The notes beneath the pieces were generated by a model. That model did no database searches and had not been told where the DNA came from. It saw nothing but the letters and a program-made list of their open reading frames with translations. Position numbers and translations under genes: made by a program. A stretch of DNA of 64,000 nucleotides from a virus (lineage: Duplodnaviria > Caudoviricetes), in IMG/VR virus record IMGVR_UViG_3300021400_001327, positions 32,001-96,000 of that record. One strand, 5' to 3'. This document shows, one piece after another, positions 3,032-44,647 of this stretch (the first letter of the stretch is position 1; each line of letters begins with the position of its first letter).

Positions 3032-3094
3032 ATCGCAAATCCTCCAGATAAGACCCGCCGCAATGACGATCCATCACGGCGGGAATAATGTCGA

Positions 3095-19494: not shown

Positions 19495-19788
19495 CATAAC
19501 CCACCGGCTTTCGCCGATGGCCGGACTATTTCTTTACCCATTGCTGGGCAGCTGGCACTTCGCCGACTGGAGTTTCACCAGCCAGCTACTCCTTACGGAT
19601 AGTCTCTACACCTTCCTCTCACGAGGCTTGGCACGGCATTGTCCTGCGCTCATGCGTTTAGAGTTTTGCCGTTAGCCGACCCAAAAGTCCATATATTATT
19701 GATAGTGGTCATTTGGTCCGACACCCCAGTTGTCTGGGTTCACCAGCTTTTCATCATCACGTTACCGTGATGCGCGACAGTGTTACTT
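19495..19788 (-). ncRNA. Group I intron (294 nt, no ORF) in RNAP catalytic motif
   Basis: P1 exon CGAU pairs with GUCG (U.G at the splice site); core elements GTAGAGACTA and AAGAAATAGTC; terminal G at 19495; splicing gives NGADFD-GD. Confidence 0.92.
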
Positions 19789-21354
19789 ATCGAAATCCGC
19801 ACCGTTCAATCTCTGCGCCACTAAGCTCTTTATGTTCAGCATAGCCACATTTGTCAGGTGGCCGCACCATTTCCAAATCTCGTCCGCGTTATTCACTCGG
19901 AGCACTACGTTCTCGCTCCGGCAGATGTGCGGGTTTCTTGTCACGACGTATTCCCCGTCGTACGTGATGCCCTTGCCTTTCGTCCAGAACTCATCGGCGC
20001 CGAGACAGCCGACAACCGGAAGTCCGCCAATGTGTTCCGCAAACGCGATCAGGTCTGGGGCGATAAACTTGAAGCATGACTTAATGTACAGCTTACCGCA
20101 CTTCATATCGTTGATAAACTTGTCCAGCAGGGACATGATGTATTTGTTCACTGTTGGCTCTTTCATCATGGCGTCGTTCTTAGCAATCGCCGCCACGTAC
20201 GCGTTCAGCGCGTTGCACTTCCCGTCTACGATACCAAGGAAGCATTTGGTAAAAAGCTCGTCTCCGCTAACGATGCGCTCAATCCACCTCGCAGACTGGT
20301 GGGCCAAGGTCTTGAAGTCCTCATAGGGCAGGTCCAGCGTCTGCAAGACCTGATAATTGCTCCGTGTGTACACCGGCTCTTCCTCTTCGGTGAAGTTGGC
20401 GCGGGCAATAGAAATACAGTGTTCGTATTTATAGAACGCATCCCAGTACCGTTGCCAGTCCCTTGCGTCGCCGTACTGCTTGAAGTAGCCGAGCCCCTTG
20501 TACATGCTCTCGCTCAGGATGATCATCTCTTCGTGGATGCTGTGCTTCTGCCCCCACAGGTCCTCAATATACTCGACGCCGCGCTCCTCGTAGAAGCCCT
20601 CGTAGTCGAAGACGTGAAGACACCCTTTAATGAACGGCTGCCTGTAGATGACGGTGGTGATGGGCGTTGTGCTGTTGGTCAGCGTCTCCATCCAGTGAGC
20701 CACGTTCTTATGCATGATGCCAACACCATCGAACGCGTTGATCTCGTAGTCGAACACGCCCTCGGCGATGTCCTTCTGCGTAAAGTTGAACTCTTTGCCT
20801 TCAGAGTTCGTGTACGTGGTCACCTTATCAACAAGGTGTTTGATGCGCTGGTTCTTGATGGTCGTCATCATGTCCGGCACAACGATCATCTTCGGCACAT
20901 AGTTCTCGATGCAGTGTGCTGATGAAAGCGCGAGCCCGCGATAGGCGTACCACTTGCTCAGTACCGTCTTGTCGATTTTCAGCCCCATCGTCACGCGCTC
21001 TGTGAGCTCGTCCGCTATCGAGGCATCGACCATCGACAGTACGCCCTGGCGCACCATAGACGCGCTGCGCTCGCCGAGCACGAACGGTCGCCCGCGTATC
21101 TTGATACCCTCCAGCGCAAGCCGCGACAGTGTAACAGCGATATCCTTGTGGTAGTTAATGTCCACGAAGATGATATACGGGTTGTACTTCGACGTCACGC
21201 CGGTGATGCGCCTGATCTGTCTCAGGTACTGGCTGTCGGCCTGCTTGATGAAATACTTCTTCTCTTCCTCTGGCGAGATATCCAGACTGAAATCTGCCTT
21301 TACGATCGTACGCAGATCAATCGAGCGCACGATATACTGCTTAGGCGCCTGTAT
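19789..21354 (-). CDS. YonO-like single-subunit RNA polymerase, exon 1
   Basis: SAS..RQG, FDGVG, R.PFIKG, RNPH, RLNGADFD. Start is either GTG 21330 or ATA 21354. Spliced product ~843-851 aa. Confidence 0.85.
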
Positions 21355-21573: not shown

Positions 21574-22004
21574 CCCTCATCACCGGCCTCTGCGGCATCG
21601 CCGCCTTCTTCTATGAAAAGACTGGGATTGCTGGCCATGTACGCAGATTTCGCGCTTGGTACGACGTGATTGTTCAGATCCAGTACAAACTCCTGTAACC
21701 GCTGCAACGTGACCTCCGGCGGCAACAGTCCCTGAGCCATCGCATCCATCATAATGGCCACGACCTGCGCCGGTTCACACATCATGGGCTCCATAGCCAC
21801 CACCTTTGAGTGCTTCAGGATGAACGCCTTTACCTTCGGCGTGAACTTGGTCACCCCTACATTCACGAACACGTTGGCGAGGTCTACCATCACCGTATCC
21901 CCCATACCATCCACATACACGCGCTGAACACCGCACGTCTTCGGCGGCGCCCCCTCTTCTGTCTGTTCCATCAACGCCACCTTGAACCAATGCTTTACTT
22001 CCAT
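21570..22004 (-). CDS. Hypothetical protein
   Basis: AGGAGG RBS. Confidence 0.7.
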   Translation of the reverse strand: MEVKHWFKVALMEQTEEGAPPKTCGVQRVYVDGMGDTVMVDLANVFVNVGVTKFTPKVKAFILKHSKVVAMEPMMCEPAQVVAIMMDAMAQGLLPPEVTLQRLQEFVLDLNNHVVPSAKSAYMASNPSLFIEEGGDAAEAGDEG

Positions 22005-22019
22005 GCTTCCCGCTACCTC

Positions 22020-22328
22020 CTATTTGATTTCTGCCTGTAAACCATATTTCTTGAACAGCGCCTCGACATGCTGCCTGATTGTCTCCTCACGCATAAGCTC
22101 CGGCTGTCTGTTCGCCAAAGACAAAGCTTCGAGCATTACAGACTGCACTTCCTGTATCGCGAAGACGACCAGCATCCCCTCCCTGTAGGCCACTGCCTTT
22201 CCAAGGTCAATGATCGGCTGTACGTCGTCCAGCACAGCCGACGGCGACCCGAACCTCGTCTTGCCGATAAACTCATTGACGAAATGGTCAATAGTAAGGG
22301 CGACCCACTCACCCGTCACGTCAGCCAT
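22020..22328 (-). CDS. Hypothetical protein
   Basis: Coupled ORF with RBS. Confidence 0.65.
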   Translation of the reverse strand: MADVTGEWVALTIDHFVNEFIGKTRFGSPSAVLDDVQPIIDLGKAVAYREGMLVVFAIQEVQSVMLEALSLANRQPELMREETIRQHVEALFKKYGLQAEIK

Positions 22329-22686
22329 CGGCGCTCACCTTCAACTTCAGCTTCTCGACCATCTTGTCGTCGACCAGCTTGGCGCGGTCAATAAACTTCC
22401 GCATGTCGTCCCATACATCCTCAAGGGTTTTGGTCCCGCGCCGGTTGATCGACTCTCGCATCTGCGCCGATACGATAGCCTGGAGCACACCGCCAAGCGT
22501 CGTGTAATAACCGACAGCCACATAGTTCTCTTTGCCGATGTTCTCCTGCTTGGGCTGTTTGCCGGTGCCGCCGCCTTTGACCTTCGTTCGCCGGTACAAA
22601 ATCAAACAGTAGTTGTCCGCGCCGAGGAACCACTCATCAACGATCGGTATGACCTTCGGCTCCCTTTTCTCTTCTGCCAAACCCAC
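22321..22686 (-). CDS. Hypothetical protein
   Basis: GGAGGTG RBS; GYY..L..L pattern common in phage proteins. Confidence 0.65.
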   Translation of the reverse strand: MGLAEEKREPKVIPIVDEWFLGADNYCLILYRRTKVKGGGTGKQPKQENIGKENYVAVGYYTTLGGVLQAIVSAQMRESINRRGTKTLEDVWDDMRKFIDRAKLVDDKMVEKLKLKVSADG

Positions 22687-22712
22687 TCACCTCCATAAAT
22701 ATCCTTAAAACT

Positions 22713-22811
22713 AATTTGAACAAATCGCCACGCGTTTCCACGAAGCGAGCCGATAACTTGTTAGGGTGTTTTTCCATCGGCCTTCACGATCTCTAAAATA
22801 TTGATTTCAGA
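22713..22811 (-). repeat. Left copy of inverted ~100-bp site (candidate recombination site)
   Basis: 22751-22767 is the exact reverse complement of 26585-26601; flanking blocks are conserved at identical spacing. Confidence 0.75.
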
Positions 22812-22815
22812 TTGC

Positions 22816-23211
22816 TTACTTCTTTTTTCTGCTCTGCTCGACCCTGTCCTCAATGATTTCGGCGATCCTCGGGTCTTTGACGATCTCTTCGGCGTCCGCG
22901 TCGGTCGGTACACGATAAGCGCTCTGCACGTAGTTGTAGAAAGCCCCTTTCATCTTTTGACCGAGACCGGCGACAGAGATCATGCCGCCGTTCCAAGCGT
23001 CGGCCAGTACGTTGATATCCGAGTACGCCGGGGTCGAAAGTTTACAGCAGGTACACTCGATCCAATATGCGTGAAGGTTTTTGAATATAGCCTTACTGCC
23101 GCAGAGGGGGCACGTCTTTATCTTCGGCTGTTGCTCGGGCAGCTCAACGTATGCCGTCTCGGTAAGGGACTGAACGCCATAACCAGTGTTCCAGAATGCA
23201 CCGCTTGCCAT
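22816..23211 (-). CDS. Lar (restriction alleviation)-like Zn-finger protein
   Basis: KTCPLCG..IECTCC..AWN pattern. Confidence 0.55.
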   Translation of the reverse strand: MASGAFWNTGYGVQSLTETAYVELPEQQPKIKTCPLCGSKAIFKNLHAYWIECTCCKLSTPAYSDINVLADAWNGGMISVAGLGQKMKGAFYNYVQSAYRVPTDADAEEIVKDPRIAEIIEDRVEQSRKKK

Positions 23212-25615
23212 TACGCATCCCGTTCCTTCCGGTACCAGTCATTGAATATCTCACAGGCGAGCCACAACTGATGCCATATCTGGCCAATATCGATCTCCGC
23301 GATCTCGGTGAACGGTCTGTCGCCCACGAAGTGAAGCTCTGGCGGTTCCTTGCCGGAGAAGTACCAGTAGGCCAGCGTGAAGCAGTAAGCTCTGCCGGAG
23401 CTCTCCCTGGTCCATTTGACGAGCTCTACGTAAGGCTGGCCGTCGCCGAGACTCTTTGTTGTTCGTATTTCAAACTCACCGTATTTCCAATTGAAGTCGA
23501 ATTGATTGGTCTCCATGCATACTCTCCTTTGATGCCATCCATCCTCGCTCCGCACTCGGGGCAGAAGTTGGTCATTGCAAAATCTCCAGCCTTGTCCTCT
23601 ATCGCGAAGGTCAAACAGTTTGAGCAGAACGGCTCGACGCCGTGTTCGTTCGCCACCCATTCCGCATGAGGCTGGGATGGACACTTCCCGCACTGGTCTG
23701 TGGCATAAGTCCACGTCATTTCTTTCCGGCCTCCTCGGCTGCGGTCGCCGCGATGAAGCGGTCCCTGAACTCGATCGCCGCACGGCTCATGTAGGCAGCG
23801 CCGTCGGTGGCCTCGTCCAAAGTATCGGGCAGGCGTCCGGCCAGAAACTCACCGAATAGCAGGTGAACGCCGAGCGTGATCATGTCCCGCTTATGCCGGT
23901 TGCGGCCAGCGCCCTTGATGGCGACAGCGCAGACCTCTGCCAGGTACTGGTCCCAATGTTTATAGAAGCCGGTCTCAGGCGCGATCTTGAACCCGCAGAC
24001 TTCCATCATTTTCTTCAACACATCATCCATGCTTGATGGCCTCCTCAAATTCATCCAATAGCTTAGCCGCCCTCAACATCAGTGCGCCGGTGCAATCACC
24101 GAGGGACTTTCCGTGGTCGGTTCCCGTTACGCAGTCACTGCACGTCTCATCGTTATACGGCAGGCTGCACCGCTTGAGAGACATCGACGTCTGTTGTACC
24201 TCGCCGAGAAGGACGGCGTTCTGGATAACCTTCATCTCCTCGATCTCGTGACGATCGCGCTCAAGGGACAAGTCCTTCCTCAGCTGGCTGATCTCGTTCT
24301 CCGCGTCACGCATCCTGTGCGCGTCCGTGATGTGCATAATGACGAGCAGAAGGCATAGCGCCGTAAATAAAAAATAAATGACCCGAAGGTCAGTCTCAAT
24401 GTTCATGGGGCACCTCCAATACTTCTGCCGGTACGCTCCAGCACTCCCATGTGACCCCGTACTCATTCAATGGCAACATGTACCTGTGCTTCGCGCTCTC
24501 GAACAGGTAAACACCGCTATCCTGCATAAGGAAGAACGTTGGCTCCTGGCACCACACTTCGTCTGGGTCACAGCAGGTGATAACGACGAGCTCGTTCTCC
24601 TCCAGACATTTAACGTCGAGGAGAGTCATCTTAGTTATCTTGCTCATCGAACTCATTCCTTCCTCCTGCGCTCACCAGCGCCATACAAAAAATGCCAACC
24701 ATCGCTGACAGGGGAACGATCCAGAACAGATGCCATATACTAATCATTGCTCCACCTTTCTGATCACGTACCGGTGATCCCTGAACTCAGATTCCTTATC
24801 CATCTTCTCAACGCTGCGCACAATAATGTTGCAGTCGCCCTTAGCTGTATTTACGAGCGCGATATCCCCAGGCTTCAGTTTCTCCGCCAGCGCCTTGTCC
24901 GCGTACCACTGGAAGTCCACTGTGTCGGTCGCGTGATGGACGCCGTGCACCACGTACAGATCCCTCTCATCGTCGTGCAAAGCATCGATATGGCAGAGCA
25001 CGTTCCACAGGCTTTGCTGTACCTGCTTCGCCTCAGCGCCGATACGCTCGATTTCGTCCTTGTACCGTTTCATGGTTTCGCCCAAGCCCTCAGCCTTTCG
25101 CTGAAGCTCTAGCTTTCGCGCCATGAGTGCGCTGTACTGGTGCTCCCTCTTCACATGCTCGACAGGCGGAGGCGTGAACTTGATTGAGGCCAGCATCTCC
25201 TCCGGCGTGAGCTCATGCTCGAGCACCCACTGCTTCTTCTTCACGTCCTTGCCGTTGTCTGTTACGACAGCAACATCATACATTTGCCAGGAGTCATCGG
25301 CCATGTCATAATAACCAACGGTCGAATACGGGTCCTTCCTTAACTTCCAGAGCCATTTGCCCTCGCCCGTGTCCTGATTGATAAAATATCCAATGCTTCC
25401 CTGATACATCAAAACCTCCCGTTATCGTACCAGTCAGATAGTACAGCCATGATTAACACGATACAGAATAAACCGAGAATGATCGTCATGTCCGCTAAGT
25501 CCCCCACAATGAAGGTCACCTCCTTTGCGTAAATAAAAAACGGCGAGCCTTCGCGCCCGCTCAGAGATATGTAAAAGGCAGACACCTGGTCTGCCCTGTA
25601 AGAATAATATAACAC
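23211..25615 (-). other. Cluster of ~8 small coupled hypothetical genes (incl. 23426-23719, 23716-24030, 24023-24406, 24396-24656, 24744-25412)
   Basis: Overlapping start/stop codons with RBSs; no recognisable families. Confidence 0.6.
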
Positions 25616-25634
25616 ATCGTGGCCGCTGCGTCAA
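25606..25634 (-). promoter_or_regulatory. SigmaA-type promoter, leftward
   Basis: TTGACG-17 bp-TATATT with extended TG. Confidence 0.7.
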
Positions 25635-25679
25635 ATTAGGTTGGCGGCTCCGTTCTATCCATTGGATAAACTCTGGATG

Positions 25680-26450
25680 TATATTTTAAAATCGACGAAT
25701 CTTTTGTAATATCAGATTAATTAAATTATTTTTAATCTGTTTTTTGAAAAATTCTCTATCATTAGTATAGTATATATAATAAGACTAATAATCAGATTAG
25801 TACTCAGTTAGATGAGAACTACTGTACAGTAGAACTCAATCAGTTGAGAACTCCTGTAGATGAGTCCTAATTTTTTAAAAACTAATAAGACCGGTCTTAA
25901 TAGCTTATACTCTCTATGGACATAATGGTATACCATTCTCTCTATGAGGTACATGTAGAATAAGCTATTCTGTAACGATATAATATTATAAGCTTAGATG
26001 CAATATAATATAAACTATTACACTCAATAAACTTAGATGCAATATATAAGCTATTAAGCTCAAGTAACTTAGATACGTCTACTATGATACATAATAATAT
26101 AATCTATGACTTAACGGCTTATATAAGCTATTACCTAACGGCTTATACCAGATGTCACTTAATAGCTTATACTCTCCAGTCTTAAGGGCTTATATCTCAT
26201 AGAGTCCTTGATTCTAACTGCTGATATATTCATTTATAGCCATGAAGCAAATAAATGAATATATCAGCAGAGAGTAATAGAAGAATATAGAGAAGACTGT
26301 CCATAGAGTACATGTAGAGCGTAATAGCTTAGTAACGTATCAAGGACTCGTTACAGAATAGCTTATACCTCTCGGTGCTTATATGCTTACCATTATGTTC
26401 TAATCTCTTAATAGCTTTTAAGATAATGGGTCTCGGCAAAAAATTTTCTT
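25680..26450. repeat. AT-rich repeat mosaic, candidate replication origin
   Basis: ORF-free; multiple AATAGCTTA copies in both orientations; 19-bp direct repeat; 20-bp-stem hairpin. Confidence 0.6.
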
Positions 26451-26540
26451 GGGTCGGATGGCTTCGGGGCGCCGGTGACTGACGGCTGATGACGCAGCGG
26501 CTGGCGATTTATCGCCAGGAAGTTTTGCGGCGGGCGCGTA

Positions 26541-26639
26541 TCTGTATTTTTAATTCTAACAAATCCCTGAACGTCTCCGGCTGGACCCTAACAAGTTATC
26601 GACCTTTACGAAAGAATTGGCTGGCGGTTTGTTAGAATT
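26541..26639 (+). repeat. Right copy of inverted ~100-bp site
   Basis: Core ACCCTAACAAGTTATCG flanked by inverted arms AATTCTAACAAA/TTTGTTAGAATT; ends 16 bp from the recombinase stop codon. Confidence 0.75.
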
Positions 26640-26655
26640 TAATATACGTGTATTT

Positions 26656-27492
26656 TCACTCGTCGTCGTCAGTGTCGAGCGCGTACTGGTAGCTGAGTTC
26701 CATGCTCTTCACGGCAGTTTTGCCTAGTACAAAATCAGAAACACCGCGCCGGAGACTGCTGGTACGCGGGAGCCGACATCCGATGTAAGCCATCGTGGTC
26801 GTCTGGTTCGCGTGACGAAGCATCAGGGATGTGTCCGCCATAGCGAGCGCCGCGTTCTGGATGTCTCGGGACGTAGAGGCTATCGTGTTGGCGATGGTGG
26901 CGAAGGTCTTACGCATCGTGTGTGTAGAGGTCCTGAGGTATGGAGCCGCTGCGCGTAAGCCGGTACGCAATAACCGGTTGGCGGCGTCGGTCGCCATCGG
27001 GGTTTTGCCCTTGCCTTTGTTCGAGGCGAAGAGGTAGTTGTCCTGGGTGAACGGCATGGTCCAGCGGCACTCGTTGATGTAGAGGCTGACGTACTGCTTG
27101 ATGGCGTCCGTGATCAGCATCTCGTCGTCCTGAGAGCAGGTGCGCTTGCCGGTCTTGATCTCGATGATGTCGATAGCCCGCCTGAACGTGATGGGGTTCG
27201 TGGAGATCAGAAGGTCGGATACCTTGAGAGCGCAGAGGTCAGAAATACGAAGGCCGGTACATACACCAGTCACGAACATAGCGGCTTCCCTGAACTTGCG
27301 CTGGGAGAGGAAGTGATCGATGACCGCCTTTACCTGAGCATAGGACTCAAGGGGCTGCGCGGCCTTGATGGCAGAGACGCCCTTCGCCAACTGCTTCTGG
27401 CGCGGGGTAAGATTTTCGTCCTCTACGGTATAAGCCAGAGAGGTCATGTTCACAGAGTCCGCGCCGGGGAACGCAATGATCTTACCGCTCAT
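26656..27492 (-). CDS. Tyrosine recombinase (catalytic domain only)
   Basis: TGLRISD, KTGK, HTMRKT, LRH, TMAY give R-K-HxxR-H-Y. Confidence 0.92.
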   Translation of the reverse strand: MSGKIIAFPGADSVNMTSLAYTVEDENLTPRQKQLAKGVSAIKAAQPLESYAQVKAVIDHFLSQRKFREAAMFVTGVCTGLRISDLCALKVSDLLISTNPITFRRAIDIIEIKTGKRTCSQDDEMLITDAIKQYVSLYINECRWTMPFTQDNYLFASNKGKGKTPMATDAANRLLRTGLRAAAPYLRTSTHTMRKTFATIANTIASTSRDIQNAALAMADTSLMLRHANQTTTMAYIGCRLPRTSSLRRGVSDFVLGKTAVKSMELSYQYALDTDDDE

Positions 27493-27549
27493 AATAGCCT
27501 CCGATTAGATGTAGGATCTGGTACGGTGGACCTGACTTCCACCGAAATC

Positions 27550-27578
27550 AGTGTACCACAAAATGTCGGTTTTGTCAA
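27550..27578 (-). promoter_or_regulatory. SigmaA promoter of recombinase with overlapping direct repeats
   Basis: TTGACA-17-TACACT; AAAATGTCGGT at 27560 and 27582. Confidence 0.75.
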
Positions 27579-28171
27579 GAGAAAATGTCGGTCTCCCGGG
27601 CGTTTTCGCGAGGTCGATGTCGGCCTGTGCGATTGAATGCGGGGATGGCGGAAGTGGTCTGGCGACGATGAGGAGCTTGGTGTGCAGCGGCTACGGAAGA
27701 TCAGGCGGCGCCCACACGTTAAAAGAAGGGGACGTAAAGGCCACTACATCATCATGGAAAATGTTTTCCAATCCCCTTTCCCTGTGACTCCCTGGTCCCA
27801 TTTCTTTTGCTTTTCCCAGAGCTCAGAAATGGGACCAGACTACTGGGAGGGAAGGGGATAAGCCGGGAGGCGCAGAGGGTGGGTATACACTCTTTTCGGT
27901 GGTGATTGGTGTCGCGTTTGGGGTCGCAGGGGGAGGAGGTGGTTTTGGGGGTTGAGAGGGGGATTTTGGTGGATGGGAAATAAATTTTGGGGGTTGGGAG
28001 GAGAGGCAGCTTGGCCGGGCCAGGCTGGTCGCTCGGTGGGCTGAGATGTAAACGGGGCGGGGGATGTCGGGTTTCTGTCGAAAACCGATATTCTGCGGCG
28101 GTCGCGGTCGCGGCATAAAAAGAGCAGGGGCGGCGGCGCGTCCCTGCTTCTGTTGCGGTGGTGGTCAATGG

Positions 28172-31753: not shown

Positions 31754-32200
31754 ATGCCCAAAAATCCTGCACGAGGGATTGATGAGCGAGCGTTTTTTTG
31801 CGACCACTGGTTAGTCGGAACCAGAAATGAAAACGGAATCAGAAAGGAGACCAAAAATGCAGACATTCATTATCAGCAAGAAGCAGTTCAAGCGCCTCAT
31901 GAAAATTATCAGCAAGGGACGCACCATCCAGCGCAAAGCTGAACGGAAAAACAAGAGGCTCGAACGCCTTTTGGCCGAGGTGTTCGGATGATGATTCCAA
32001 CATGGGTTTTCCTTGCCGTTCCTATGGTCATCGCGTACGGAATCGGAACCATAATTGATTCCGTAAAAGACCGCCGCGAGCGCCGGATGCTCCACTACAT
32101 CTTCGACGGTGACAGGCTTCAGGCGGAGCGCTGCAACAAAATCATTATGCGCCGCGAGCGCAAGTTTTATTGACAACCGGAACCAGAAAGGAGAAGCAAT

Positions 32201-32746
32201 ATGTTCGACGTCAAACACGGGCATCACCTGATTTGGACGAACCACGCACTCAACCTCGACGACTGGGCCCCCTTTCTTGAAGAGGAATATCCAGACGTAA
32301 CGGACGAGAGTGACAAGTGGAATATTATCTGCGAGCGGAATCTGGAATATCTGGACGATGAGCGCATGAACCTGAACATTAATCTCGGAATGCCGATCAT
32401 CTGCATAGCGGATCTGGAACTCTGGGACGGACGGAAAGATGGTTATAAAATCATCGGATCGGGAAATATTTCTGATTGTCTGTATGACAGTTGCGACTAC
32501 GACACATGGTACGTGGACGAGGTCGGAGATCTCTGCTGCGACGCCATACACCACGACGGAACCAACCACTATTTGTATAGGGTTTTCCGCGACGGAACCA
32601 CACCTGAACAGATGAGCAAACTGGAACAGAAAATCTACAACGGAATCGCAAAATGGCCTGATATCGCCAGAGTTACGACCAAGATCGGACCCACAATCGC
32701 GAAAGTATATGGGTGGGGATGGAACCGGAACCGGAAACAAAACTGA
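32201..32746 (+). CDS. Hypothetical protein
   Basis: GAAAGGAGA RBS; L.LWDGR and HHDGTN patterns seen in phage/ICE proteins. Confidence 0.75.
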   Translation: MFDVKHGHHLIWTNHALNLDDWAPFLEEEYPDVTDESDKWNIICERNLEYLDDERMNLNINLGMPIICIADLELWDGRKDGYKIIGSGNISDCLYDSCDYDTWYVDEVGDLCCDAIHHDGTNHYLYRVFRDGTTPEQMSKLEQKIYNGIAKWPDIARVTTKIGPTIAKVYGWGWNRNRKQN

Positions 32747-32768
32747 ATCTTGATTTTGTTAAACAATT

Positions 32769-32796
32769 AGCGGGGATGAAAACCACCCCGCTTTTT
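32769..32796 (+). terminator. Intrinsic terminator
   Basis: AGCGGGG/CCCCGCT stem followed by a T-run. Confidence 0.65.
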
Positions 32797-32813
32797 GTTT
32801 GGAAGGAGCAATC

Positions 32814-33551
32814 ATGTCATTCAAAATCGGAAAAATCTTCGACGCGCTCGGACACATCTTCAGAATCAACCAGACGGAACACAAAGGAAAAATGGAGTTC
32901 GTTCCGTCTATCAGTACTTCCTGCCGGTGCAACGAATTCTGTCAGGCACGCATGCGGAACGGCGAGAACGTCTGCGCGGAGTGCTTCGCGGACTCCCTTC
33001 TGGCGTTTCGCTGGTCGCTGGAAGAGGCGCTGGAACAGAATTCCAAACTGCTTTCCGAGCGGCTTCTGACGGAACAGGAAATCGATTCGATTGTCATCCG
33101 TTGGACGCCAAAAATGCTGGAAGGAAATCCGGGTATGTATACCCGCATCGAGAGCTTCGGCGATGTGCGGAACGTAATCCAGGCACGGAATTACATCCGC
33201 ATCATCAAACGGAACCAGAAATGCAACTTTGCCATCTGGAGCAAAAACTGGCGGCTGTGGTTCATCGCCTTCCAGATGGAAGGGAAGCCGGACAATTGCA
33301 CGTTCGTGTTGAGCTCGCTCAAATTGAACGTACAGGACCTGATTCCGCCCGAGATGGAACAGTATGTAGACCACGTTTTTACGGTCTACGATGCTGACTA
33401 CATCGCCGCCAACGGAATCGAAACCAACTGCGCGGCTGAGTCCTGCGCAAAGTGCGGACGTTGCTACAGGAAGAACAGGGCGGACCTGTATGTAAACGAG
33501 AAGCTCAGGAAGAAGGGCGGGAAAGCCCGCCGGATAGCCAAAGCCGCATAA
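32814..33551 (+). CDS. Gp88-like Cys-cluster (radical-SAM-like) protein
   Basis: C..C..CAECFA, RIESFGD, FAIWSKN, C...C..C..C. Confidence 0.6.
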   Translation: MSFKIGKIFDALGHIFRINQTEHKGKMEFVPSISTSCRCNEFCQARMRNGENVCAECFADSLLAFRWSLEEALEQNSKLLSERLLTEQEIDSIVIRWTPKMLEGNPGMYTRIESFGDVRNVIQARNYIRIIKRNQKCNFAIWSKNWRLWFIAFQMEGKPDNCTFVLSSLKLNVQDLIPPEMEQYVDHVFTVYDADYIAANGIETNCAAESCAKCGRCYRKNRADLYVNEKLRKKGGKARRIAKAA

Positions 33552-33710
33552 CGGCATCGGAGCCGAAATGAAATCCAATTCGGATTCCCCGACCGTGGTT
33601 CCCTGACTGAAAACCCACCCCATACGGTCAGCGGAGCCCGAAATGAATCTCGTTTTGGATTTCAGCGGCGGCTCTTGTGGACGAAAACCCACCCCGAAAG
33701 GAGACACACT

Positions 33711-35037
33711 ATGGAGAAACCCGTTGAATACATCGTCAGGGTTTACGACGGACCCGATACCTACGAGTATGAATACTCGAATCCAGAACACGCCAACGAA
33801 GCGCGGGACTGGGAGCGCGAACACGGCAACAGCGCCAGCCTCTTTGCCTACTACTGGGACGGCGTCAACCGTCGCGAAGAGTTTATCCGCTAATGGCGGA
33901 ACCAGAAAGGAGATTGAATCATGAGCAAGCAGTATTTCCCAATCACATCGGACCGGGATCAGACCATAAACTTCATGCGCGTTGACTTCGTCTACAACAA
34001 GGGCGGAATGAACGTCTGGACGTACAAGCGGGAGCCCCGTGGTTACTACCTGATGTTCACGCCGGTCCAGCGTGACGGAATCATGGAGGGCTTCACGGCC
34101 TTCACCGGCAAGAAGTACATCATCACTGAGGTCTCCAGGGCTTCCGCGAAAGCGGAACGGGAAGCAAAAGCTGAAGCTGACCAGTTCATCGAAGACATGC
34201 TGGAGCACGTTTGTGAACAGCTTGGCTGTCATCTGGTCAGAGAGGAGCAGGAATGAAAATCAGGTTTTATCAGGTGACGATGAATCGTCACTATGACTAT
34301 CCGGCTGCTGTGCCTGTGACGGAATCGGAAACCATTGTTAATCGCATCGGTCTATCACCCACCGTCAAGAATGTGAAGCGCTTCATCGAGCGTCACACAG
34401 ACCTTATGATCGACACCCGCTGGATGAGCGTCGCGGAGCAAATCCACGACGGTATGTCATGCGGGTACTTTTCAATCAACCTTGTGACCGGAACAGAATT
34501 TGAAACCTGTTCCATCGGATTTATGGAGGTGTAATCATGAAACGCTCGTTTGAATGGCATGGAAATAAATACTTCCTGCTCGGAACCGGATCGGACGGAG
34601 ATTATTATTGGCTCCAGGAGGCTTCGTTTGATTGTGGCTGGTACTGGAGTATCGGCTACATAGAAACATTCACGAATAATAAAGCTCCGTGGAGGAGCGC
34701 AGATATAGCCAGTCACAGCCATTTTAAGTACATGATGGAACGCCAAAAAAACGACTTTGGCGGACCAATGAATTGGTATGACGCGTTCCGTGCCGTTTTT
34801 CATGAGACGCCGCTGACGGATTCAGAAGTATGGACCGTGATAGAAATCATGAGGAGCCTGTACACGGCGCGTGATTACTCGGATATGCTTTACCATGGCG
34901 GATCGTATTACACCAGAAACCCTGTCGCAGAAACCATAAAGAACGCAGCGGAATACGGGCGGATCAACAAAGTGGTCATCCCTGCCTTGCTCGAAAACCT
35001 GTACAAAATCTTGGACGGAACAGGAAAGGAGAACTAA
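33711..35037 (+). other. Four small hypothetical genes (33711-33893, 33921-34256, 34253-34534, 34537-35037)
   Basis: Each has a strong RBS; tightly packed. Confidence 0.7.
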
Positions 35038-35039
35038 CC

Positions 35040-35420
35040 ATGACCGAAGTCTATCGCCAGACCGGCGCCTATGCCCGCGAACACAATGAGCTCGACCAGT
35101 ACCGCGAATCGTATCGGCTCAACCAGGAATGCAAGCGCGACATCGAGAAGGGCATCGCCGCCGCCTTCGACGGAATGCGCCTCGCTAACGGACCGGAGCA
35201 GGAAGTGCTCACTAAGTACGGCGCGGACCGTGTGTCCTACGTCCTCGCCAACACGCTTCAGGAACTGCGCTACGATGGCCGCTTCAGCCGGAGCAATAAA
35301 GAGTGGGCGAACGGAATCACAATTACACCCAGCGAAAACAACTGCTATCTGATCGTGAACACCCATCCCGCCGTGCTGGATGGATTCGTAAATAAGGTCC
35401 GAAAGATTATCGGACAGTGA
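35040..35420 (+). CDS. DUF3849-like protein
   Basis: YARE..EL..YR.S, YG..RV..VLANT, DGRFS..NK.WA, HP..LDGF. Confidence 0.75.
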   Translation: MTEVYRQTGAYAREHNELDQYRESYRLNQECKRDIEKGIAAAFDGMRLANGPEQEVLTKYGADRVSYVLANTLQELRYDGRFSRSNKEWANGITITPSENNCYLIVNTHPAVLDGFVNKVRKIIGQ

Positions 35421-36120
35421 AAGGAGAACGGAATGGATAATCAATCGCATTTCAAATGGGAACTGACCCGCGATGAACTGGACACCATCTGGTGGGCGCT
35501 GACCGAGCGCGAAACATCCATGCGGAAGAAAGCCGAGCGTGTACACAACGGCGAGAAACTGGGTTGCACGGAAGCAGAATATCACAGCATGGCCAACAAA
35601 TGTTTAGACTTGTACGGCCAAATCAATCGTATGCGGAACCGCTACTGGTAAGAAAGGAGACAAAAACCATGACTATTAAGCGCGACATCCTCGGAACCGT
35701 AATCGAAATCAAATTATCTGAGCAGGAAGTGCTCGCCGCCCACCGTGCCTATCTGGAACAGGAGCTCGGTAAGATGAGCGCTCCTCTCCCCCAGCCCACA
35801 AAGTGTGAGATGACTCAGAAGCCACAGCCGGACTGCAATCCAAAGCTTGTTGTCGCTGTGGCCGTAGGGCAGGAACCTGAGTATATACAGAAACTGTGGG
35901 AGTGCAGGGCAAAACTCGAAGAGGCACCGTACACATCAAAACGTTGTTTGGTGCTGGATGCTTACGTTCCGTATATGGCAGCAGCGCATAAAGCAGGGCT
36001 GTCTGGAAATAAGATTGCGCAAATACTCGGCACTTGCCCGTTAACAGTTCTGAAACGTCTTGATTCTATTCGTCGAGGGAATACTTTCGCCGCCTGACGG
36101 ACTCAGAAAGGAGAGAGCGT

Positions 36121-36486
36121 ATGGGTTACTACACAAGTTATAACATGGACGTAAACAACGTTAAGAGTAAAGCGGAACACGATGCGCTTTATGATGCGCT
36201 TAGAAAGAAGAACATTATTGGATATGCCTTCTATGGCGGAGACTGGGATAAGCATAACTCATCCTCGTTCTGGTGCAGCGAATGCGTTAAGTGGTACGAC
36301 CACGATGAAGACATGCTTGAGATCAGCAAACAGTTCCCGGAAATGACGTTCAAACTGATCGGAACAGGCGATGATGACGATGATCGCTGGTACACGCTGT
36401 ATCGTAATGGCGAATTTGAAACGGTAAAGGCCGTACTGACCTGGCCGGAACCAAAGCGGATTAAGTGGAAGGAGTTATGGAAATGA
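36121..36486 (+). CDS. Hypothetical protein (paralogue of 38280-38651)
   Basis: Shared YT.Y.M.V, IGY.F and S..FP..TFKL...G...D.W. Confidence 0.7.
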   Translation: MGYYTSYNMDVNNVKSKAEHDALYDALRKKNIIGYAFYGGDWDKHNSSSFWCSECVKWYDHDEDMLEISKQFPEMTFKLIGTGDDDDDRWYTLYRNGEFETVKAVLTWPEPKRIKWKELWK

Positions 36487-37053
36487 AAATCGTTTATCAG
36501 GTGACCGTAACGGACGAAGATGTCAGACAGAACGTAATGGACGTTATTGATGAAATGGAAGGTGAAATCGAGTTTCACAACGACGATGAGAAGTCCAACT
36601 TTATCACAGACTGCACTGAGAACATCTGCGATAAATACGAAAGCGAATATTGGAACCACGAATTGTCGTACATGGACTATGAAGAAGAAGTCCTGGATTT
36701 GGCAAGGGAATATGGAATCAGGAAGGACTGACGATGAGAGCGAAGGATTACCTGAAGCTCAATCGGACGGCAGCGGTCGAGCTCCGGGCGCTTGATGAGT
36801 ATTTACTGAGGCTGTGCGGAACAGCATTTGACTGGAGATTCGTCAACATGTACGACATCCCTCTTCTGGCCGGAACGATAAACGGACACGAGTTCCTCGT
36901 GAACCTCAGCCTGCCGATGAAGAAGGTGAAATACTGGATCGATGGAGCCGTAAAGGAGAGTGATGACTATCACGGCTTCAGCGAAGAAGAGCTCGCAATC
37001 GAAATCTCGAACTGGTCCGGCAGGAATTTCTTGTATGAAATCGAATCTCTTAT

Positions 37054-37742
37054 TTGACATCGGAGCCCAAAACGAATTAGGATTATGAAGGGAGTGGAGT
37101 AAATGAGAGCGTCGGACTGGGGAATACTAATCTTACTCGTTATCCTCTTTGGCCAATACTACTACAGGATGAACAAAGCACAGAAGGATCTGTTTAAGGA
37201 ACAGGCGATAAAGTATCAATTGCTCCCGAAGTACGGTGTGTTTGATCAGCACACAATAAAGAATTATCTGAGCAAATTTGCAGAGCCAGGAGTCAATGTG
37301 TACTTCGGCAGCCTGCAAAATGTCGCGCAGAGTGTTCCGATGATGCGGCTCGGATCGATTGACACTGCGATGAGAAAGTACTATAGCTGGTACGGGTTCC
37401 TGTATATCGCAATGTACATCATGTATTATCAGGATTCTATGCCGCAAATCGCCAGACGGATGGCGCACGAGCTTGAGAAGTACTGGCCGGAAGGAATGAC
37501 ATGGCGAAAAGCCACGAAGTACTTAACGGAATTAAATCAACAAGAGATTTATGAACTCGGAAACAAAGCTACCTACTATGCAAAACTATACATGACGCTT
37601 CCGCCGGAAATCCAAGCGAAACTCGATGACAAAAAACAGCGAAAGAAGTTCCTGAAAGAAGAAGGAATAATCTAACGGAACCACAATTGAATATGGATCG
37701 TTACGAAGTATGAGGACTGTCTGGAACGGCAGTCCTCTTTAA
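37054..37742 (+). other. Moron-like unit: promoter, membrane-anchored ORF 37103-37675, terminator
   Basis: TTGACA-18-TAGGAT; N-terminal TM helix; GAGGACTG/CAGTCCTC stem plus TTT. Confidence 0.6.
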
Positions 37743-38279
37743 TTACGAAAGGAGACAGACGGAATGGTAACAAACACATTCGGGCTGAAGATGGACGGCC
37801 TCGCTCAGGCCGCAGCCGCCACCGAAGATTATGGTTGGCGCGGACTCAGATACAACGAACTCTTCTACAATATGCGGACCGGTAAGGTGTGGCTGGTCAA
37901 GCAGACCAGTCTGAACCAGGCCGCCTGTACTAAATATGATAACCCCAGCATCGTGAAGATTGGCAACCTGACGGACCAGTATACAGAACAGAAACTGGCG
38001 GTAAGGATTTACCGTGGGCTCATCAAACAGGGGAGGATCAGAAAATCATGAAAAAGATGTCTGAGGTCTATGCGGAACTGGTCGCCGCGATGCCGTCGGA
38101 AGAAATCGACCATCATGAGTCGGACCTGTATGTGAAAGCCACGCCGGTCAGTAGTCGGATCATCAAAGAGGCTGATATCCCCCACGGAATGGTGGAACGG
38201 TTTGTAGACCAAATTACAGGAACCGTCTGGTACGACCTTGCGTTTGCTTACATGCCCTTCTGGGCGGAAAGGATTTAAT

Positions 38280-38651
38280 ATGGCAGATTACACTCGTTAC
38301 TCTATGGAAGTCGACGGAATCAAAACCGATGAAGAACTGAAGGCGTTTGAGGACAAGCTCAAAGAGCTCGACCTTATCGGATACGTCTTCGATGAAGGTC
38401 CTTGGAAAGCAAAGAATGGTATTTACCAGTGGGGACATTACGATGAGCAGAACTGGACGACATGTGAGGAAACGATGATGCTTCTCAGCAGGACATTTCC
38501 GACCTTCACCTTTAAGCTCATGTGCTACGGTGAGGGGATTGACGACAACTGGGTGCTGTATATGAAGAACAACGTTTGGCAGTGGGTTAAAGCGGAATGC
38601 GTTGCCCCTGCTCCCGACTGGGCGGAATGGCGCGGCGACTGGAAAATGTGA
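38280..38651 (+). CDS. Hypothetical protein (paralogue of 36121-36486)
   Basis: Same shared motifs as its paralogue. Confidence 0.7.
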   Translation: MADYTRYSMEVDGIKTDEELKAFEDKLKELDLIGYVFDEGPWKAKNGIYQWGHYDEQNWTTCEETMMLLSRTFPTFTFKLMCYGEGIDDNWVLYMKNNVWQWVKAECVAPAPDWAEWRGDWKM

Positions 38652-38664
38652 AGGGAGAACCGGA

Positions 38665-38994
38665 ATGACATTTGAAGTGAAAACCCGCTGGGCTGTAACG
38701 CCTGACTGTTACCTGAGTGTTGGCCAATATGAACGCGGCAAGCACATCGCCATCAGCATCTGGTCTGAATCGGAAGGACCGTTCGCTGACCTGACCGTGA
38801 ACCTCGACAAGGTCAAGCGGTTCCCGAGGAACTACGCTTTCGTGGACGTGAACAATTTTCCAGAGGCTGAAGCCATGATCAAACAATTGGGCATTGGAAC
38901 ACGAATTGAAAACGAATTCGGTTTCAGCGGATACTGCGCTTACCCGCTGTATCAGTTCGATGAAGAAGCAATTAAGAAATGGATGGAGGGATGA
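38665..38994 (+). CDS. DUF4313-like protein
   Basis: PFADLTVNL, AFVD.NN, SGYC.YPLY.FD. Confidence 0.75.
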   Translation: MTFEVKTRWAVTPDCYLSVGQYERGKHIAISIWSESEGPFADLTVNLDKVKRFPRNYAFVDVNNFPEAEAMIKQLGIGTRIENEFGFSGYCAYPLYQFDEEAIKKWMEG

Positions 38995-41900
38995 AAATGA
39001 CTATCGGAGATTTGGCGGACGTATATCAGGGACACATGGTGGTTATGGGAGCGGACAAGATAACGCTCGCAGACACGATCCGTGACCACGGGGATTTGCC
39101 GTTCGACCTTATCAATGTGCGGATTGAAGGACTCTTGCCGCTGAAATATCCAAGCGGAGAGTTTTATATTGAAATCACTGTCGACCTGTAACGAAAGGAG
39201 ATAAGAAGTATGGAACTGGAAGTCAAAACAAAGCTCGGAACCCTGATGGCCTCTGCGGACGGAGACGTCAGTTATCCGGGAATCATGATATATCTTGTGC
39301 GTGACGACGGAATGAGAATACTGTATGCCTGGGTCGAAGTCGACGAGACAGAAGCGGAACCAGTGCTGAAGGTGCATGCGTTCAACAGCTACGACGACGA
39401 GCCAGAGTTTGATTTGGACCAGACAGCGGACGACATCAATAATTATGGAGAGGAGACGGAATAATGAAGAGGTATCGGATTGAGTTTAACGGCGTGATTG
39501 AGATTGAAGCCGAGGACGAGGACGAAGCGTGGTCGACCTTTGGATGTATGTCCGACGAAGAAGTACGCGGGAACATCAGCTACATCGATGTAGAAGAGGT
39601 TGAGTAAGGAAGGAGCGATAATCGTGAAAAAGATTCAGTTTGGACTGACGGAAGAGCAGATGCTGATCACGAAGGGATGGACGGTTGTGCCGTCTGACAG
39701 CAACGACCCCACGCAGCCCGTGCTGTTCATCCCGCCGCTTGAGTCGGACGAGCGTCCGTTCATTAAAATGTCCGATGGAACCAGAATCAACGTCACAGCC
39801 AATATGTGCGACGCCATCTACCGCTACGTGGATCGGGAGTCTGCCGCCGATGATTTGAATTACTTCACGAACGATAAGTATGAGGGCGGCGAGTTCATTG
39901 AGCATAAGGACGAGATTGAGGAATGCAAGGAAGATATCATCGACAACTACATTGAGCGCCGGAACGGAGCGGAATCGTGGTGGGATGATATGCGCGACAG
40001 CATCAAGTATTCACTGGGATTGTATTAAGGAAGGAGCGATAAACATGAAACCGTTTAAGGAACTCAGCCGTAGAGAGCGCATGAACGAACTGCTGGTGCA
40101 TGTAAACCAGATCATGCATCGTATCTATCCAGACCGTGAACTCTGGGTGGACTACGTTAAGCCGGACGAGGAAAGCATCAAGACCTTCAGCGACTGGACT
40201 CAGAAGAGACTTGGAATTCTGACTGGAGATGAATACCTAATCGTCAGCGAAGGGCCCCGCATGGAGAGTGTCCTGTACGCCGTGAATATTTCGGCGGACT
40301 CAGAACTCACGGCGATGGACGAACTGTTTCATCTGCTGAGTTATAAGTTTTAAGGAGCGTTGTGATGGATGGTAACGGATACGCCATCTTTTCATATGAA
40401 AGATGGCGTGATGGTATGCAGGATAGGCCGGAGCCCGAAACAATGAGTCTTGAAGACCTGGTCTCCGAACTGATTAAATGGTTGCCGAAGGATGAGCACC
40501 GCATATGGAGCTATGACGGAGACGAAATTCTGTGTGAGACTGAACAGCTTGCTGAAGACATCGCCGACTTCATAGATGCGCTCTATGGCACACCTGTAGC
40601 AAACACAGGATACTACGCCCCAGAAGAGGATGCGCGGAACGGCGAAACAGACCAGCAGACCGGCTGGTATTATGTGACGATAGATTAAGGCGGAAGGAGA
40701 AAATGATATGACGTTATTTGGTGGATATGAGTGCAAGACGACTTTCTGGAACGACTTCGAGATTGCAGAACGATTCGGAAAAGATGCTCTGATGGACACC
40801 TTCAACAGGGCGTTCGGTGAGTGGAAGAACAACTACATCTACCTGACAGAATTGGTCATGGTGATGAACCACAAGCTGTGGTACTGGTACGAGAAAAAGC
40901 ACGATCACCCATATGTGGAACTGTACAACGTTTTCTACGATAAGAGCTCATGCTATGCGGAAGAGAATCTGAAAGGCAATGAGCTCAGCTACTACTACAG
41001 GACGACAGACTGAAAGGAGAATCGTTATGAAGTATCGCGAATACAAGAAAGAATACATCGGCGAATCCGACAGCGCTGTACTGGTGGTGCTGTCTCAGAC
41101 ATATGACGGGGCGCTCGAAGCGGCGCCGCTGAAGTTTGGTCAGGACCACGCATACAGCGCATATATCGTGGACCAGCACTGCGACCCGCCCCAGCTTGAG
41201 GGATGGAACCTTGAGATCATCAGGATTGGCGCTGGTTGGTTCAGAATCTACGACGACCACGAGGGAATCGTGATGCAGAAGGATTTTGATAACGTGCTCC
41301 GCATTTACCGGCGCGGCGAGATGGGCTGCATCATCCAGGCGTATTGAGAGGAGTTAAACATGAAGTATATCGACTATATGGAACAGCATCCGAAAGAGAA
41401 CATGAGTTGGTGCAGGCCGTTCCTGTCAGATGACGGACACGCGCTTGCTCTCAACGAGGGCGACCCAACCTGCCGCTTCCCAGACGGGGCAATAGGCGGG
41501 CAGGAACTGATGAAGCGGTTTGCAATGGAGGTCAATCCATCATATGATTTATACAGCGGATGGGATGACATTCATATAGCGCTCGAGTGCATGCACGAAG
41601 TCGGCTGCGTGGACTGTCCGTTTGCCGACATGTGCGAAGTGATGAACGATGAACTGGAGGGATGAGGAATGAATAAGGAGCGCAGGAAGCAGTTACAGGA
41701 AGTGATCAACAAGATTTCCGAAGCGCACGACCTGCTCGACGAGATATTGAGTGACGAGCAGAACGCCTTCGACAATATGCCGGAGGGGCTCCAGTCTTCG
41801 GAACGCGGTGAGACTATGGAAGAAGGCATCTACAACATGGAAGAGGCGCGTGATAACCTCGAAGACATTACCAGCACACTCGAAGAAGTAATGGGATAGG

Positions 41901-42595
41901 AGAGATGAGCGATGACGGAAGACACTTATATCAAGTGTATTGACGGTAAATGGTATGCCTTTGCGGCAGACACAAAGGATTGGAAAGCATATTCGATTGG
42001 TAGCGACAATCCGAGCAGAGGCAGAGACGGCACGCGTTGGGTGGCGCCACTGAACGACAGTGGAATCAAATATGTGGCTATCTGGTCGACGTCCAGAAGC
42101 GGCGCTTATCAGAAAGCCCGTCGGAATGGCAATTACTGCGGCGAAATGAAATGGTAAGGAGACAACACCATGACGAAGCTCACGAAGGAAGAGGCCAAGA
42201 AGGAACTGTTCGATGCGCTGAACATTGACCATCCAATCATCTTTCATGTCTACGAGACCGACATTACGGACGGATATGTGGTGGGATCGGGGATCATCGG
42301 AGCGCCCGATGACCTGTACGACACAGACCGCTTCTACGATATCGGATATGATAACCACGACGTGGAAGAAATCCATGTCGACAGCATCACGACCTACATG
42401 ATTGGTGATGGTGGGGATAGCGAACATGCTGACTCCAGCGATTGCGCTGTCATAGAGGATATGCTGAACAACCGACGGACAGCTGGCGGACTGATGGAGT
42501 TCCTTGAACACGACGCCGACGTCATCTCTGATTGTGGCGCTGGGTATGTGGACAACCCGTGCTATGAGCCTGAAGACGACGATTACGACATATAA
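38991..42595 (+). other. Run of ~12 small, mostly acidic hypothetical genes
   Basis: Co-oriented ORFs of 45-140 aa, each with an AGGAG-type RBS. Confidence 0.7.
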
Positions 42596-42652
42596 TAGGA
42601 AGAAACCCATGCATGCTTTATCCAATGGATAGAAACGGAAGGAGATTTGATT

Positions 42653-43216
42653 ATGAAGATAGTATTCTCAGCGGAAACATTCAAGAGAATGATGAAGGTT
42701 TGTTCGTCGGCAGTCATCAAGAAGGACGATGGCCGAAGAATGCTCCAGTACATCTGCATTGATGTTGGTTACGACGGAACATTTACTGCGTGTGGTGTGA
42801 ACGGGCATGAGCTTGCCAAGTATAGAGGGGCATGTGAGGCTGACGGAGAGGGACGTGTCTTCATTAAGCCGGTCAAGACGCCAAAGGACGCGACCAGGGT
42901 CGTGGTCGACGGTACAGATGGAACAAGGACCATTGTTGAGTATCAGATGTACAGCCGCGCCATTTACACAGAGGTACAGGTGGTCGATAAAGGCGAGTTT
43001 ATCGCTTACGACAATGTGATTCCTAAACCAGAGGAGCGAGATGTTCTTTCGATTTCGGTCGATCCGAAAGCCATGATTGAGTTAATGTCTGGCCTGAAGG
43101 ACTTTAAGTCTATAAAGATGTCCTTCAGAAGACCGATCGACAGCATCCTGATTACACCGAATCATTACACGGAAGGCGAAGTCACTTGCGTCCTGCTACC
43201 AATGCGTGTCGCTTGA
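42653..43216 (+). CDS. Truncated beta sliding-clamp-like protein
   Basis: R.ML.YI.I, A...NGH.LA, F..Y..VIP, C-terminal VLLPMR as in DnaN. Confidence 0.65.
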   Translation: MKIVFSAETFKRMMKVCSSAVIKKDDGRRMLQYICIDVGYDGTFTACGVNGHELAKYRGACEADGEGRVFIKPVKTPKDATRVVVDGTDGTRTIVEYQMYSRAIYTEVQVVDKGEFIAYDNVIPKPEERDVLSISVDPKAMIELMSGLKDFKSIKMSFRRPIDSILITPNHYTEGEVTCVLLPMRVA

Positions 43217-43250
43217 TGGCGGCAGACCATGATTGATACGTCTTAGCGAT

Positions 43251-43753
43251 TTGACAGGCCGAAATAGTATATGTATACTGTGTATCGAAAGGAGGTCGGT
43301 TTGAAATGGAAGTTAAAGACCCCGGAAATCTGCTGATACCATTTGATAAGGTTAAAGAACTGGTCCATGACAAACTTGTTAAAACACTCGACTTAAGGGC
43401 AGATGTTAACAGTGATGTTCTCAGAGCATTGGAATTGTTCTTTCTCGAACTGGAGATGCAGCTCTATGTGGATGACATCTGGAACCCAGACTGGCGGCTC
43501 GATTACCTGGAGGGCGTCATCGATTTTGTAGAAGAAGCGAAATTGGTCACAAAAAAGCAGGCACAGTGGCTGCGCCAATACCATGACTGGATCGTCGGGA
43601 ACGATGACATGTTTGGCGACGTGGAGGATTACAGGAAGGCACTCGGAATCAAAACCCCCATTCGATATCCGGAAAAAGAAGAAGACGCAGAATAACAGAA
43701 TATGAAAGGAGCCGCATAGCGGACGCACGGTGAAAACTGTGCGTGTTTTTTTT
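43251..43753 (+). other. Moron-like unit: promoter, ORF 43306-43695, terminator
   Basis: TTGACA-17-TATACT; AAAGGAGG; GCACGG/CTGTGC stem plus T-run. Confidence 0.7.
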
Positions 43754-43756
43754 ATT

Positions 43757-44275: not shown

Positions 44276-44647
44276 TGGCGCTGATCAAGTATTCATGTGA
44301 AGTTTGTCACCGGCTCTGGGATACAGAGGAGCAGGCGGACGCCTGTGAAGCGACGCACAAAGGAGCGACCGAAATTCTGGAATGCCGTTACAAAAAGAAA
44401 GCGCAGCCGGAACTGTATCCCTCCAGCCTGCTGATGAAAATGGCGGACGGAAAACAAATCGTCTACTACATGGGACGGGCAGAGAAGCAGCCCACTACAC
44501 CGCTCAAATATGAGTCTGTCCCCTACCCCACTGACCCGACTGGCGGACAGTAAAGGAATAGTAAATCGGATTAAGCGCCGACGGCGAGCGGCTATCCGAT
44601 GCGGATTAAGAACCGCCAGTGAGCGGGCATCCGCGTGAAAGGAATAT

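Follow-up and report, generated by a model that had tools for sequence, protein, structure and literature searches.

At sites of the Xer/Cre type, two inverted arms of 11–13 bp surround a spacer. In the transposon Tn4430, cointegrates are resolved by TnpI, a small tyrosine recombinase (~284 aa), whose site, IRS, consists of a core together with flanking motifs that control the outcome. The same fold also occurs in a regulator: MrpR (YopR) of phage SPbeta has a tyrosine-recombinase fold and works as a repressor, binding a 15-bp repeated intergenic element, SPBRE (PMC10516654). Here we examine a small tyrosine recombinase gene and two composite sites, each a 17-nt core with flanking blocks, in a 64,000-nt stretch of caudovirus DNA (the window), which spans bases 32001–96000 of the complete 107,314-bp virus record IMGVR_UViG_3300021400_001327, a genome with 107-bp terminal repeats. 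Both elements are real, non-random, conserved and linked to tyrosine recombinase genes. Judging from sequence, we tentatively read each as a copy, ~90–110 bp long, of a conserved composite site that tyrosine recombinases target, and put this reading at a little under an even chance.

The core CGATAACTTGTTAGGGT at 22751–22767 (plus strand) is the exact reverse complement of the core ACCCTAACAAGTTATCG at 26585–26601 (17/17 identical), so that the two are inverted, and they lie 3.8 kb apart. We refer to the composite site around the latter, which begins 19 nt from the recombinase stop, as the proximal site (26540..26646, core read on the plus strand) and to the other as the distal site (22706..22812, minus strand), whose core reads ACCCT...ATCG on the minus strand, the direction of transcription. 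At each site, exactly 20 bp separate the core from a second block (22713–22730 and 26620–26637; 15/18 identical). Read on the minus strand, the distal block or arm is TGGCGATTTGTTCAAATT, while the core of the proximal site is flanked on both sides by inverted 12-nt arms (AATTCTAACAAA; 26553–26564 and 26626–26637). Cores and second blocks agree with the initial annotation, which had described reverse-complementary cores and equally spaced second blocks. It had also marked a TCTG 44 bp away on the other side; there a CAGAT is indeed common to both sites, 41–45 nt past the core on the side opposite the second block, but it is short and weak.

Chance does not readily produce such a pair. With up to three mismatches allowed, the core has two matches in the whole window, both being the known sites, and none of 100 shuffled windows held two or more (mean 0.16). 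In the whole genome, a search with up to two mismatches found the core exactly twice, inverted; the many scattered copies about which the initial annotation had been concerned did not appear. Both sites are intergenic, as it had stated: the distal site lies between open reading frames (ORFs) 22321–22686 and 22816–23211, its core ending 64 nt upstream of a 121-aa gene, and the proximal site lies between the recombinase stop (26656) and an AT-rich region.

The gene next to the proximal site (26656..27492, minus strand) encodes a small tyrosine recombinase of 278 aa, which matches PF00589 at 1.3e-11 (45 bits vs a cut-off of 27.1), a match also obtained when the genome was searched, and is annotated as ‘integrase’ in PHROG. 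That this enzyme consists of the catalytic domain only, as had been proposed, is a point on which Pfam, an AlphaFold2 (AF2) model and Foldseek agree. In the model (predicted local distance difference test, pLDDT, 85), the catalytic domain runs from about residue 50 and residues 1–23 are disordered; no four-helix core-binding domain is present in it, only short helices preceding the catalytic domain. Consistent with this, no N-terminal core-binding (SAM-like) domain was recognised by hidden Markov model (HMM) or PDB alignments, which begin at residue ~40–70. Foldseek searches with the model retrieved lambda Int, XerA and Cre, and the best PDB match of the family profile was XerA (4a8e, 4.4e-12), with XerD and Cre also matched; MrpR (8A0A) was not matched by this profile at E values up to 1. 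As modelled, the fold is that of a tyrosine-recombinase catalytic domain, whose nearest relatives by sequence profile are Xer-type resolvases and Cre. The enzyme is not itself a member of the XerC, XerD or XerA equivalogs, against whose cut-offs of 220–335 it scores 38–39 bits.

Across an alignment of 46 family members, the full R-K-H-R-H-Y set (R82, K113, H191, R194, H227 and Y236) is invariant, which argues that the active site of the recombinase is under selection. A C-terminal tail, SLRxAVSDFVLGKT, is likewise invariant among them. Distant members of the family (P0062 and P0078, 33–36% identical) are found in another gene context and without the core.

The public runs that hold this stretch of DNA are animal-gut metagenomes, bovine ones among them. 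Among cultured phages, blastn with window positions 22000–28000 gave no match, and tblastn returned only small ‘integrases’ of Bacillus and Streptococcus phages, ~31% identical. Protein scans of metagenome and genome contigs with the small recombinase found only relatives at ≤35% identity and yielded no prophage forms for comparison. Close relatives were few in curated collections and many in the protein database. We compared the window phage's own genome (G0) with relatives for which gene context was available, namely G1 (112,852 bp), L097–L103, L280, G409 and G2, and with two near-identical strains, L281 and a 106-kb ENA contig. Identity of the small recombinase to the window enzyme is 57–65% in L097, L098, L103 and L280, 46% in G1, ~45% in L099, L100, L101 and L102, and 30% in G2; G409 is L098-like. 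The relatives have in common a gene order that runs from the recombinase through a gap of ~1 kb and co-directional small genes to the YonO-like RNA polymerase, ClpP, PhoH and YonJ.

In 12/12 phages of this shared context (the window phage, G1/L003, L097, L098, L099, L100, L101, L102, L103, L280, G409 and G2), a copy of the core lies no more than ~200 bp after the stop of the small recombinase; chance matches with up to four mismatches number ~2 per 100 kb. Alignment of 17 sites from 10 phages gave a polar consensus, ..aGGCC..ttt ACCCTaaCAAGTTATCs ACC, in which ACCCT is invariant, with arms that lie 16–26 bp from the core, are phage-specific and are often inverted. For the family, the core can be written ACCCTAnCAAGTTATCS, with ACC next to it. 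The TAAC-AA-GTTA dyad to which the initial annotation had drawn attention is present in the window core, but it is not conserved in relatives: in the 17-site alignment, TAAC-N2-GTTA is limited to the window's clade, and the core is asymmetric.

The distal copy occupies one orthologous gap, between a Lar-like gene and the 121-aa gene, in the window phage, L097, L098 and L103, and in these four its core always points with transcription, 64–73 nt before the start codon. L280 is without it; the two genes stand 14 nt apart there, and only the proximal copy is present. Copy number and arrangement vary considerably. G2 has one site genome-wide, the window phage two, L102 three (all direct) and G1 four, and pairs are inverted in the window phage, L103 and G1, and direct in L097, L098/G409 and L102. 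Only the window pair and a second pair of G1 have cores identical over all 17 nt; in the inverted pair of L103 and in the main pair of G1, the two cores are not the same.

The core also occurs beside full-length integrases. The second inverted pair of G1 (pair A; 41232–41248 and 43054–43070, or L087:1232–1248 and 3054–3070), with identical 20-nt cores, brackets a 370-aa full-length tyrosine integrase and its tRNA-3′-end-like attP, and the two sites face outward from the integrase gene. Gene order in G0 and G1 differs exactly around this int+attP module, whose orientation is the same in L185, its single close relative. The 111-kb genome of phage G408 is complete; it encodes a distant YonO-like polymerase and no small recombinase. 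Its sole core, at G408:C1:20302–20317 (L289:8303–8318), is preceded by a long palindrome and located 50–90 nt upstream of its sole tyrosine recombinase, a 438-aa integrase (L289:6939–8255). The window phage has a second, full-length tyrosine integrase of its own, outside the window (G000:C1:705–1880, plus strand), and ~170 nt downstream of it (G000:C1 ~2054–2110) is a tRNA-3′-end-like stretch comprising T-arm, acceptor and CCA on the opposite strand; ARAGORN found no complete tRNA gene in this genome. A corresponding stretch follows the full-length integrase gene in both G0 and G1, at 130–170 nt. Since that integrase thus has its own tRNA-type attP, the composite sites are ruled out as its attP.

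Inside the segment, ~150 bp from the proximal site, lies a non-coding, AT-rich, repeat-laden region (25640..26440) that is origin-like. The cumulative GC skew turns at ~26 kb, within the AT-rich repeats and not at a coding-strand switch. Genes of the window left of ~29 kb are oriented leftward, and a change of sign amid these minus-strand genes points to a replication origin or terminus rather than to a coding-strand effect; we take the turn to suggest one or the other. In the middle of the region (26218–26270), 13 nt separate the arms of a perfect 20-bp inverted repeat. Dot comparison of the AT-rich regions among relatives revealed hardly any conserved nucleotide sequence, and no blocks in inverted orientation. 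The leftward promoter of the initial annotation was recovered as a predicted sigma-A-type promoter, TTGACG-17-TATATT with TG (25606..25634, minus strand; 10/12 consensus match), reading into the early genes. Just upstream of it, at 25653–25679, is one copy of a 27-nt inverted pair (85% complementary, core TATCCA-N-TGGATA), the partner of which is 17 kb off at 42608–42634.

We tentatively favour the interpretation that the locus encodes an Xer/Cre-like recombinase with a cognate site beside a replication origin, the left copy being a lineage-specific extra, although we would not rate this quite as high as an even bet. The sites are there, conserved and linked to recombinase genes, the active site is intact and the context is origin-like; our inference is that the recombinase binds and cleaves the core in a resolution reaction. 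On this interpretation the conserved functional unit would be one small recombinase and one site just past its stop, beside the origin region. The enzyme would bring together copies of this one site in sister genomes or within a multimer for strand exchange, and the exchange would resolve multimers or circularise the replicating genome, with no flipping within one genome. The distal copy would be a lineage-specific second copy that may serve as a second binding or synapsis site, and inversion of the 3.8-kb origin/early-gene segment could be a side reaction in the window phage.

The single-site state of G2 and L280, with one site per replicon, counts in favour of a unit of one enzyme and one site; the window phage has two copies and G1 four. 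In G2, a 117-kb phage, two sets of triple iterons (direct repeats) come after the recombinase and its single site, and then a Rep3 initiator gene (L095:5002–5751; PF01051 5e-18, PF21205 1e-10), with the iterons in the 300 nt upstream of it. By its sequence, this module is a plasmid-type replicon within a phage. Iterons and initiator stand where the window has its AT-rich skew-turn region, a context that points to a replicon-linked recombination module.

Several points weigh against a resolution unit. First, the core is without the conserved dyad (inverted arms, 6–8 bp spacer) expected of an Xer/Cre-type site, and the recombinase is without a core-binding domain to grip the DNA. Second, the core is kept across recombinases only 30% identical, and beside a different integrase family in G408; conservation beside such divergent enzymes, unlike what is expected of freely co-evolving pairs, hints at an outside constraint. 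Third, the distal copy is the better conserved one in the clade (17, 17, 16 and 15 of 17 vs 17, 16, 15, 13 and 10 of 17 for the proximal copy), which a merely ‘spare’ copy does not explain. Finally, the window phage probably integrates, as suggested by its full-length integrase and tRNA-type attP, and plasmid-style multimer resolution may therefore be unneeded.

A regulatory role, in which the recombinase-fold protein is mainly a DNA-binding regulator that restrains the origin/early region and the RNA polymerase operon through operators, is in our view unlikely, even though MrpR and SPBRE set a precedent for it in phages that also encode a YonO polymerase (PMC10516654). The position of the distal core ahead of the same gene in four phages, pointing with transcription, would suit an operator, and operators may vary in number and orientation as freely as these sites do. 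However, MrpR is without most catalytic residues, whereas the window recombinase family keeps all six, and the family profile fails to match MrpR. Nor does the placement fit well: neither site overlaps a predicted sigma-A promoter, the proximal site being ~950 bp from the early one, and the G1 sites face outward from an integrase gene.

The initial annotation had proposed a programmed inversion switch, in which the recombinase flips the 3.8 kb and so uncouples the early promoter from the polymerase operon, as a lysis/dormancy decision, or turns a replication fork around in the manner of Flp on the 2-micron plasmid. The geometry it described was borne out, with the AT-rich origin-like region and the leftward promoter inside the segment and the operon of the YonO-like RNA polymerase outside, except that the sites enclose six to seven ORFs and not some nine genes. 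Identical inverted 17-nt cores adjoining a catalytically intact recombinase, and an origin that lies near one of the sites as in Futcher's geometry, are what such a switch would look like. In addition, both sites are 100% identical over ~150 nt in strain L281, in which the surrounding DNA is 1.3–3% diverged, and G1 offers a second identical inverted pair, around an int+attP module at which its gene order departs from that of G0.

The distribution of the sites speaks otherwise, and we judge a programmed switch to be unlikely. The inverted arrangement is not conserved, since the pair is direct in L097, L098/G409 and L102 and the site single in L280 and G2, and most relatives' pairs, including the inverted ones of L103 and the main one of G1, differ inside the core. 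No flipped segment was seen in 10 relatives, the genes after the recombinase being co-directional with it in all, or in five near-identical assemblies; L281 and the 106-kb ENA contig are collinear with the window. Logan contigs of three samples from two studies (X1, X3 and X5, the last ~4% diverged) span the pair of sites, always in the reference orientation, which is also the only one among the contigs of four runs, and the mapped contigs contain no strand-changing joints, although contigs drop rare variants and could miss low-frequency flips. In IMG/VR, the two predicted flipped junctions were unmatched, but so was the reference junction, the window's own records having been left out, so that this search was without power. 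The int module of G1, finally, has the same orientation in L185. The initial annotation had itself named a lack of inverted junction reads or relatives as refuting the switch, and, as far as contigs have the power to tell, such a lack is the outcome here. As a conserved function, a programmed inversion switch is not supported.

Rare flipping of the 3.8 kb in the window phage, though unseen, may occur, its cores being identical and inverted. The lysis/dormancy and Flp-like ideas are speculation, and would be relevant only where identical cores are inverted (the window phage and G1 pair A). A broader version, in which the small recombinase would flip the origin/early module of the window phage and the int+attP module of G1, either for Flp/2-micron-like double rolling-circle production of concatemers or as a developmental lock that cuts the early promoter from the polymerase operon, strikes us as distinctly improbable. 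Were flipping to occur, these large gut phages would rearrange themselves at the composite sites, which would mark the borders of modules.

We regard an attP-type function as very unlikely. Under such a model the core would be the part that the phage has in common with a bacterial attB, with the variable arms as accessory binding sites; that the core is kept while the arms diverge, and this beside recombinases of very different kinds, does fit a constraint imposed by host sequence, the site lies directly upstream of G408's only integrase, and the small enzyme bears the PHROG label ‘integrase’. Yet in G0 and G1 the full-length integrase is served by a separate attP, as described above, and an attP present two to four times in a genome would be a hazard. 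In 401 Clostridia genomes, which may not include the host, the core is not enriched (29 matches vs ~50 for a reversed control), and the matches share no context and have no recombinase nearby. Finally, at neither core did a contig run from a half-site into foreign DNA.

The remaining candidates can be dealt with briefly: a promoter function of the core is ruled out, as the proximal copy points into the recombinase gene in G0, G1 and L103 and both copies of G1 pair A point outward into convergent genes, and a DnaA-box reading of TTATCCACC, which fits G1-type cores (8/9) but not those of the window clade (TTATCGACC, TTATCGGCT), was set aside.

The small early ORFs inside the segment (22816..25615, minus strand; 68, 222, 147, 112, 190 and 131 aa) end with the 131-aa Lar-like (restriction alleviation) gene. 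Directly downstream of the distal site follows the conserved 121-aa gene (22321..22686, minus strand), the first in the gene run to the YonO-like RNA polymerase (19783–21330). It has a weak PHROG match to ‘replication initiation protein’ (4.5e-7), no match in Pfam, and only ‘hypothetical’ clusters in Atlas. The polymerase is a single 855-aa ORF in L097 (L097:15276–17843), and its ORF is split after ~515–529 aa in the window (19495–19788), L098 and L102; the split is consistent with an inserted intron. A search of the whole window with Rfam gave nothing at gathering score, so that neither an RNA function of the sites nor an intron gains support from it. Elsewhere in the window (31816–44955) there are eight copies of a 17-nt motif, CGGAACCAGAAAGGAGA, 82–100% identical, each of which ends in a ribosome-binding site before a rightward gene.

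If the small enzyme acts on the sites, it would define a tyrosine recombinase family without the DNA-clamping domain and with the active site intact, and its partner would be a long, polar composite site, the core of which recurs in many large ruminant-gut phages with a YonO polymerase. The sites border key modules, origin and early genes in the window phage and integrase and attP in its relative G1, and may account for the way in which genome parts are resolved, rearranged or exchanged in these phages. Such a compact enzyme, with its site defined, could also serve as a tool. What makes the locus valuable is thus the site family rather than the proposed inversion switch, which is currently unsupported.

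How does this locus compare with the systems already described? With MrpR and SPBRE it shares a YonO-polymerase phage, a protein of recombinase fold and a short conserved intergenic repeat. In contrast to the window recombinase family, however, MrpR possesses a core-binding domain but has few catalytic residues left (PMC10516654), the two have no detectable sequence homology in the profile search against PDB, and the window phage has two sites where SPbeta has ~9 copies of SPBRE. The window phage resembles FimB/FimE-fimS, the Rci shufflon and Flp/FRT in having identical inverted cores served by a small tyrosine recombinase, with a promoter and an origin-like region between them. It differs from these systems in that no second orientation was seen in the assemblies and relatives compared, in that the inverted arrangement is not conserved among the relatives, and in that the segment, with 3.8 kb and six to seven genes, is not a short promoter element. 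The asymmetric site of the window resembles the sfx sites of the shufflon. TnpI/IRS of Tn4430, set beside our system by description only, also combines a small recombinase with a core and extra motifs, but it belongs to a transposon.

Compared with Xer/dif (XerA, XerC/D) and Cre/loxP, the phage recombinase is without a core-binding domain, and it scores only 39 bits against an Xer equivalog cut-off of 335; its site, moreover, is ~90 bp long, asymmetric and equipped with accessory arms, and several of the phages have two to four copies of it. Nonetheless, it is to XerA, XerD and Cre that the window recombinase is nearest in sequence and structure, and in G2 and L280, as in the Xer/dif and Cre/loxP systems, one cognate site adjoins the recombinase gene and the replicon.

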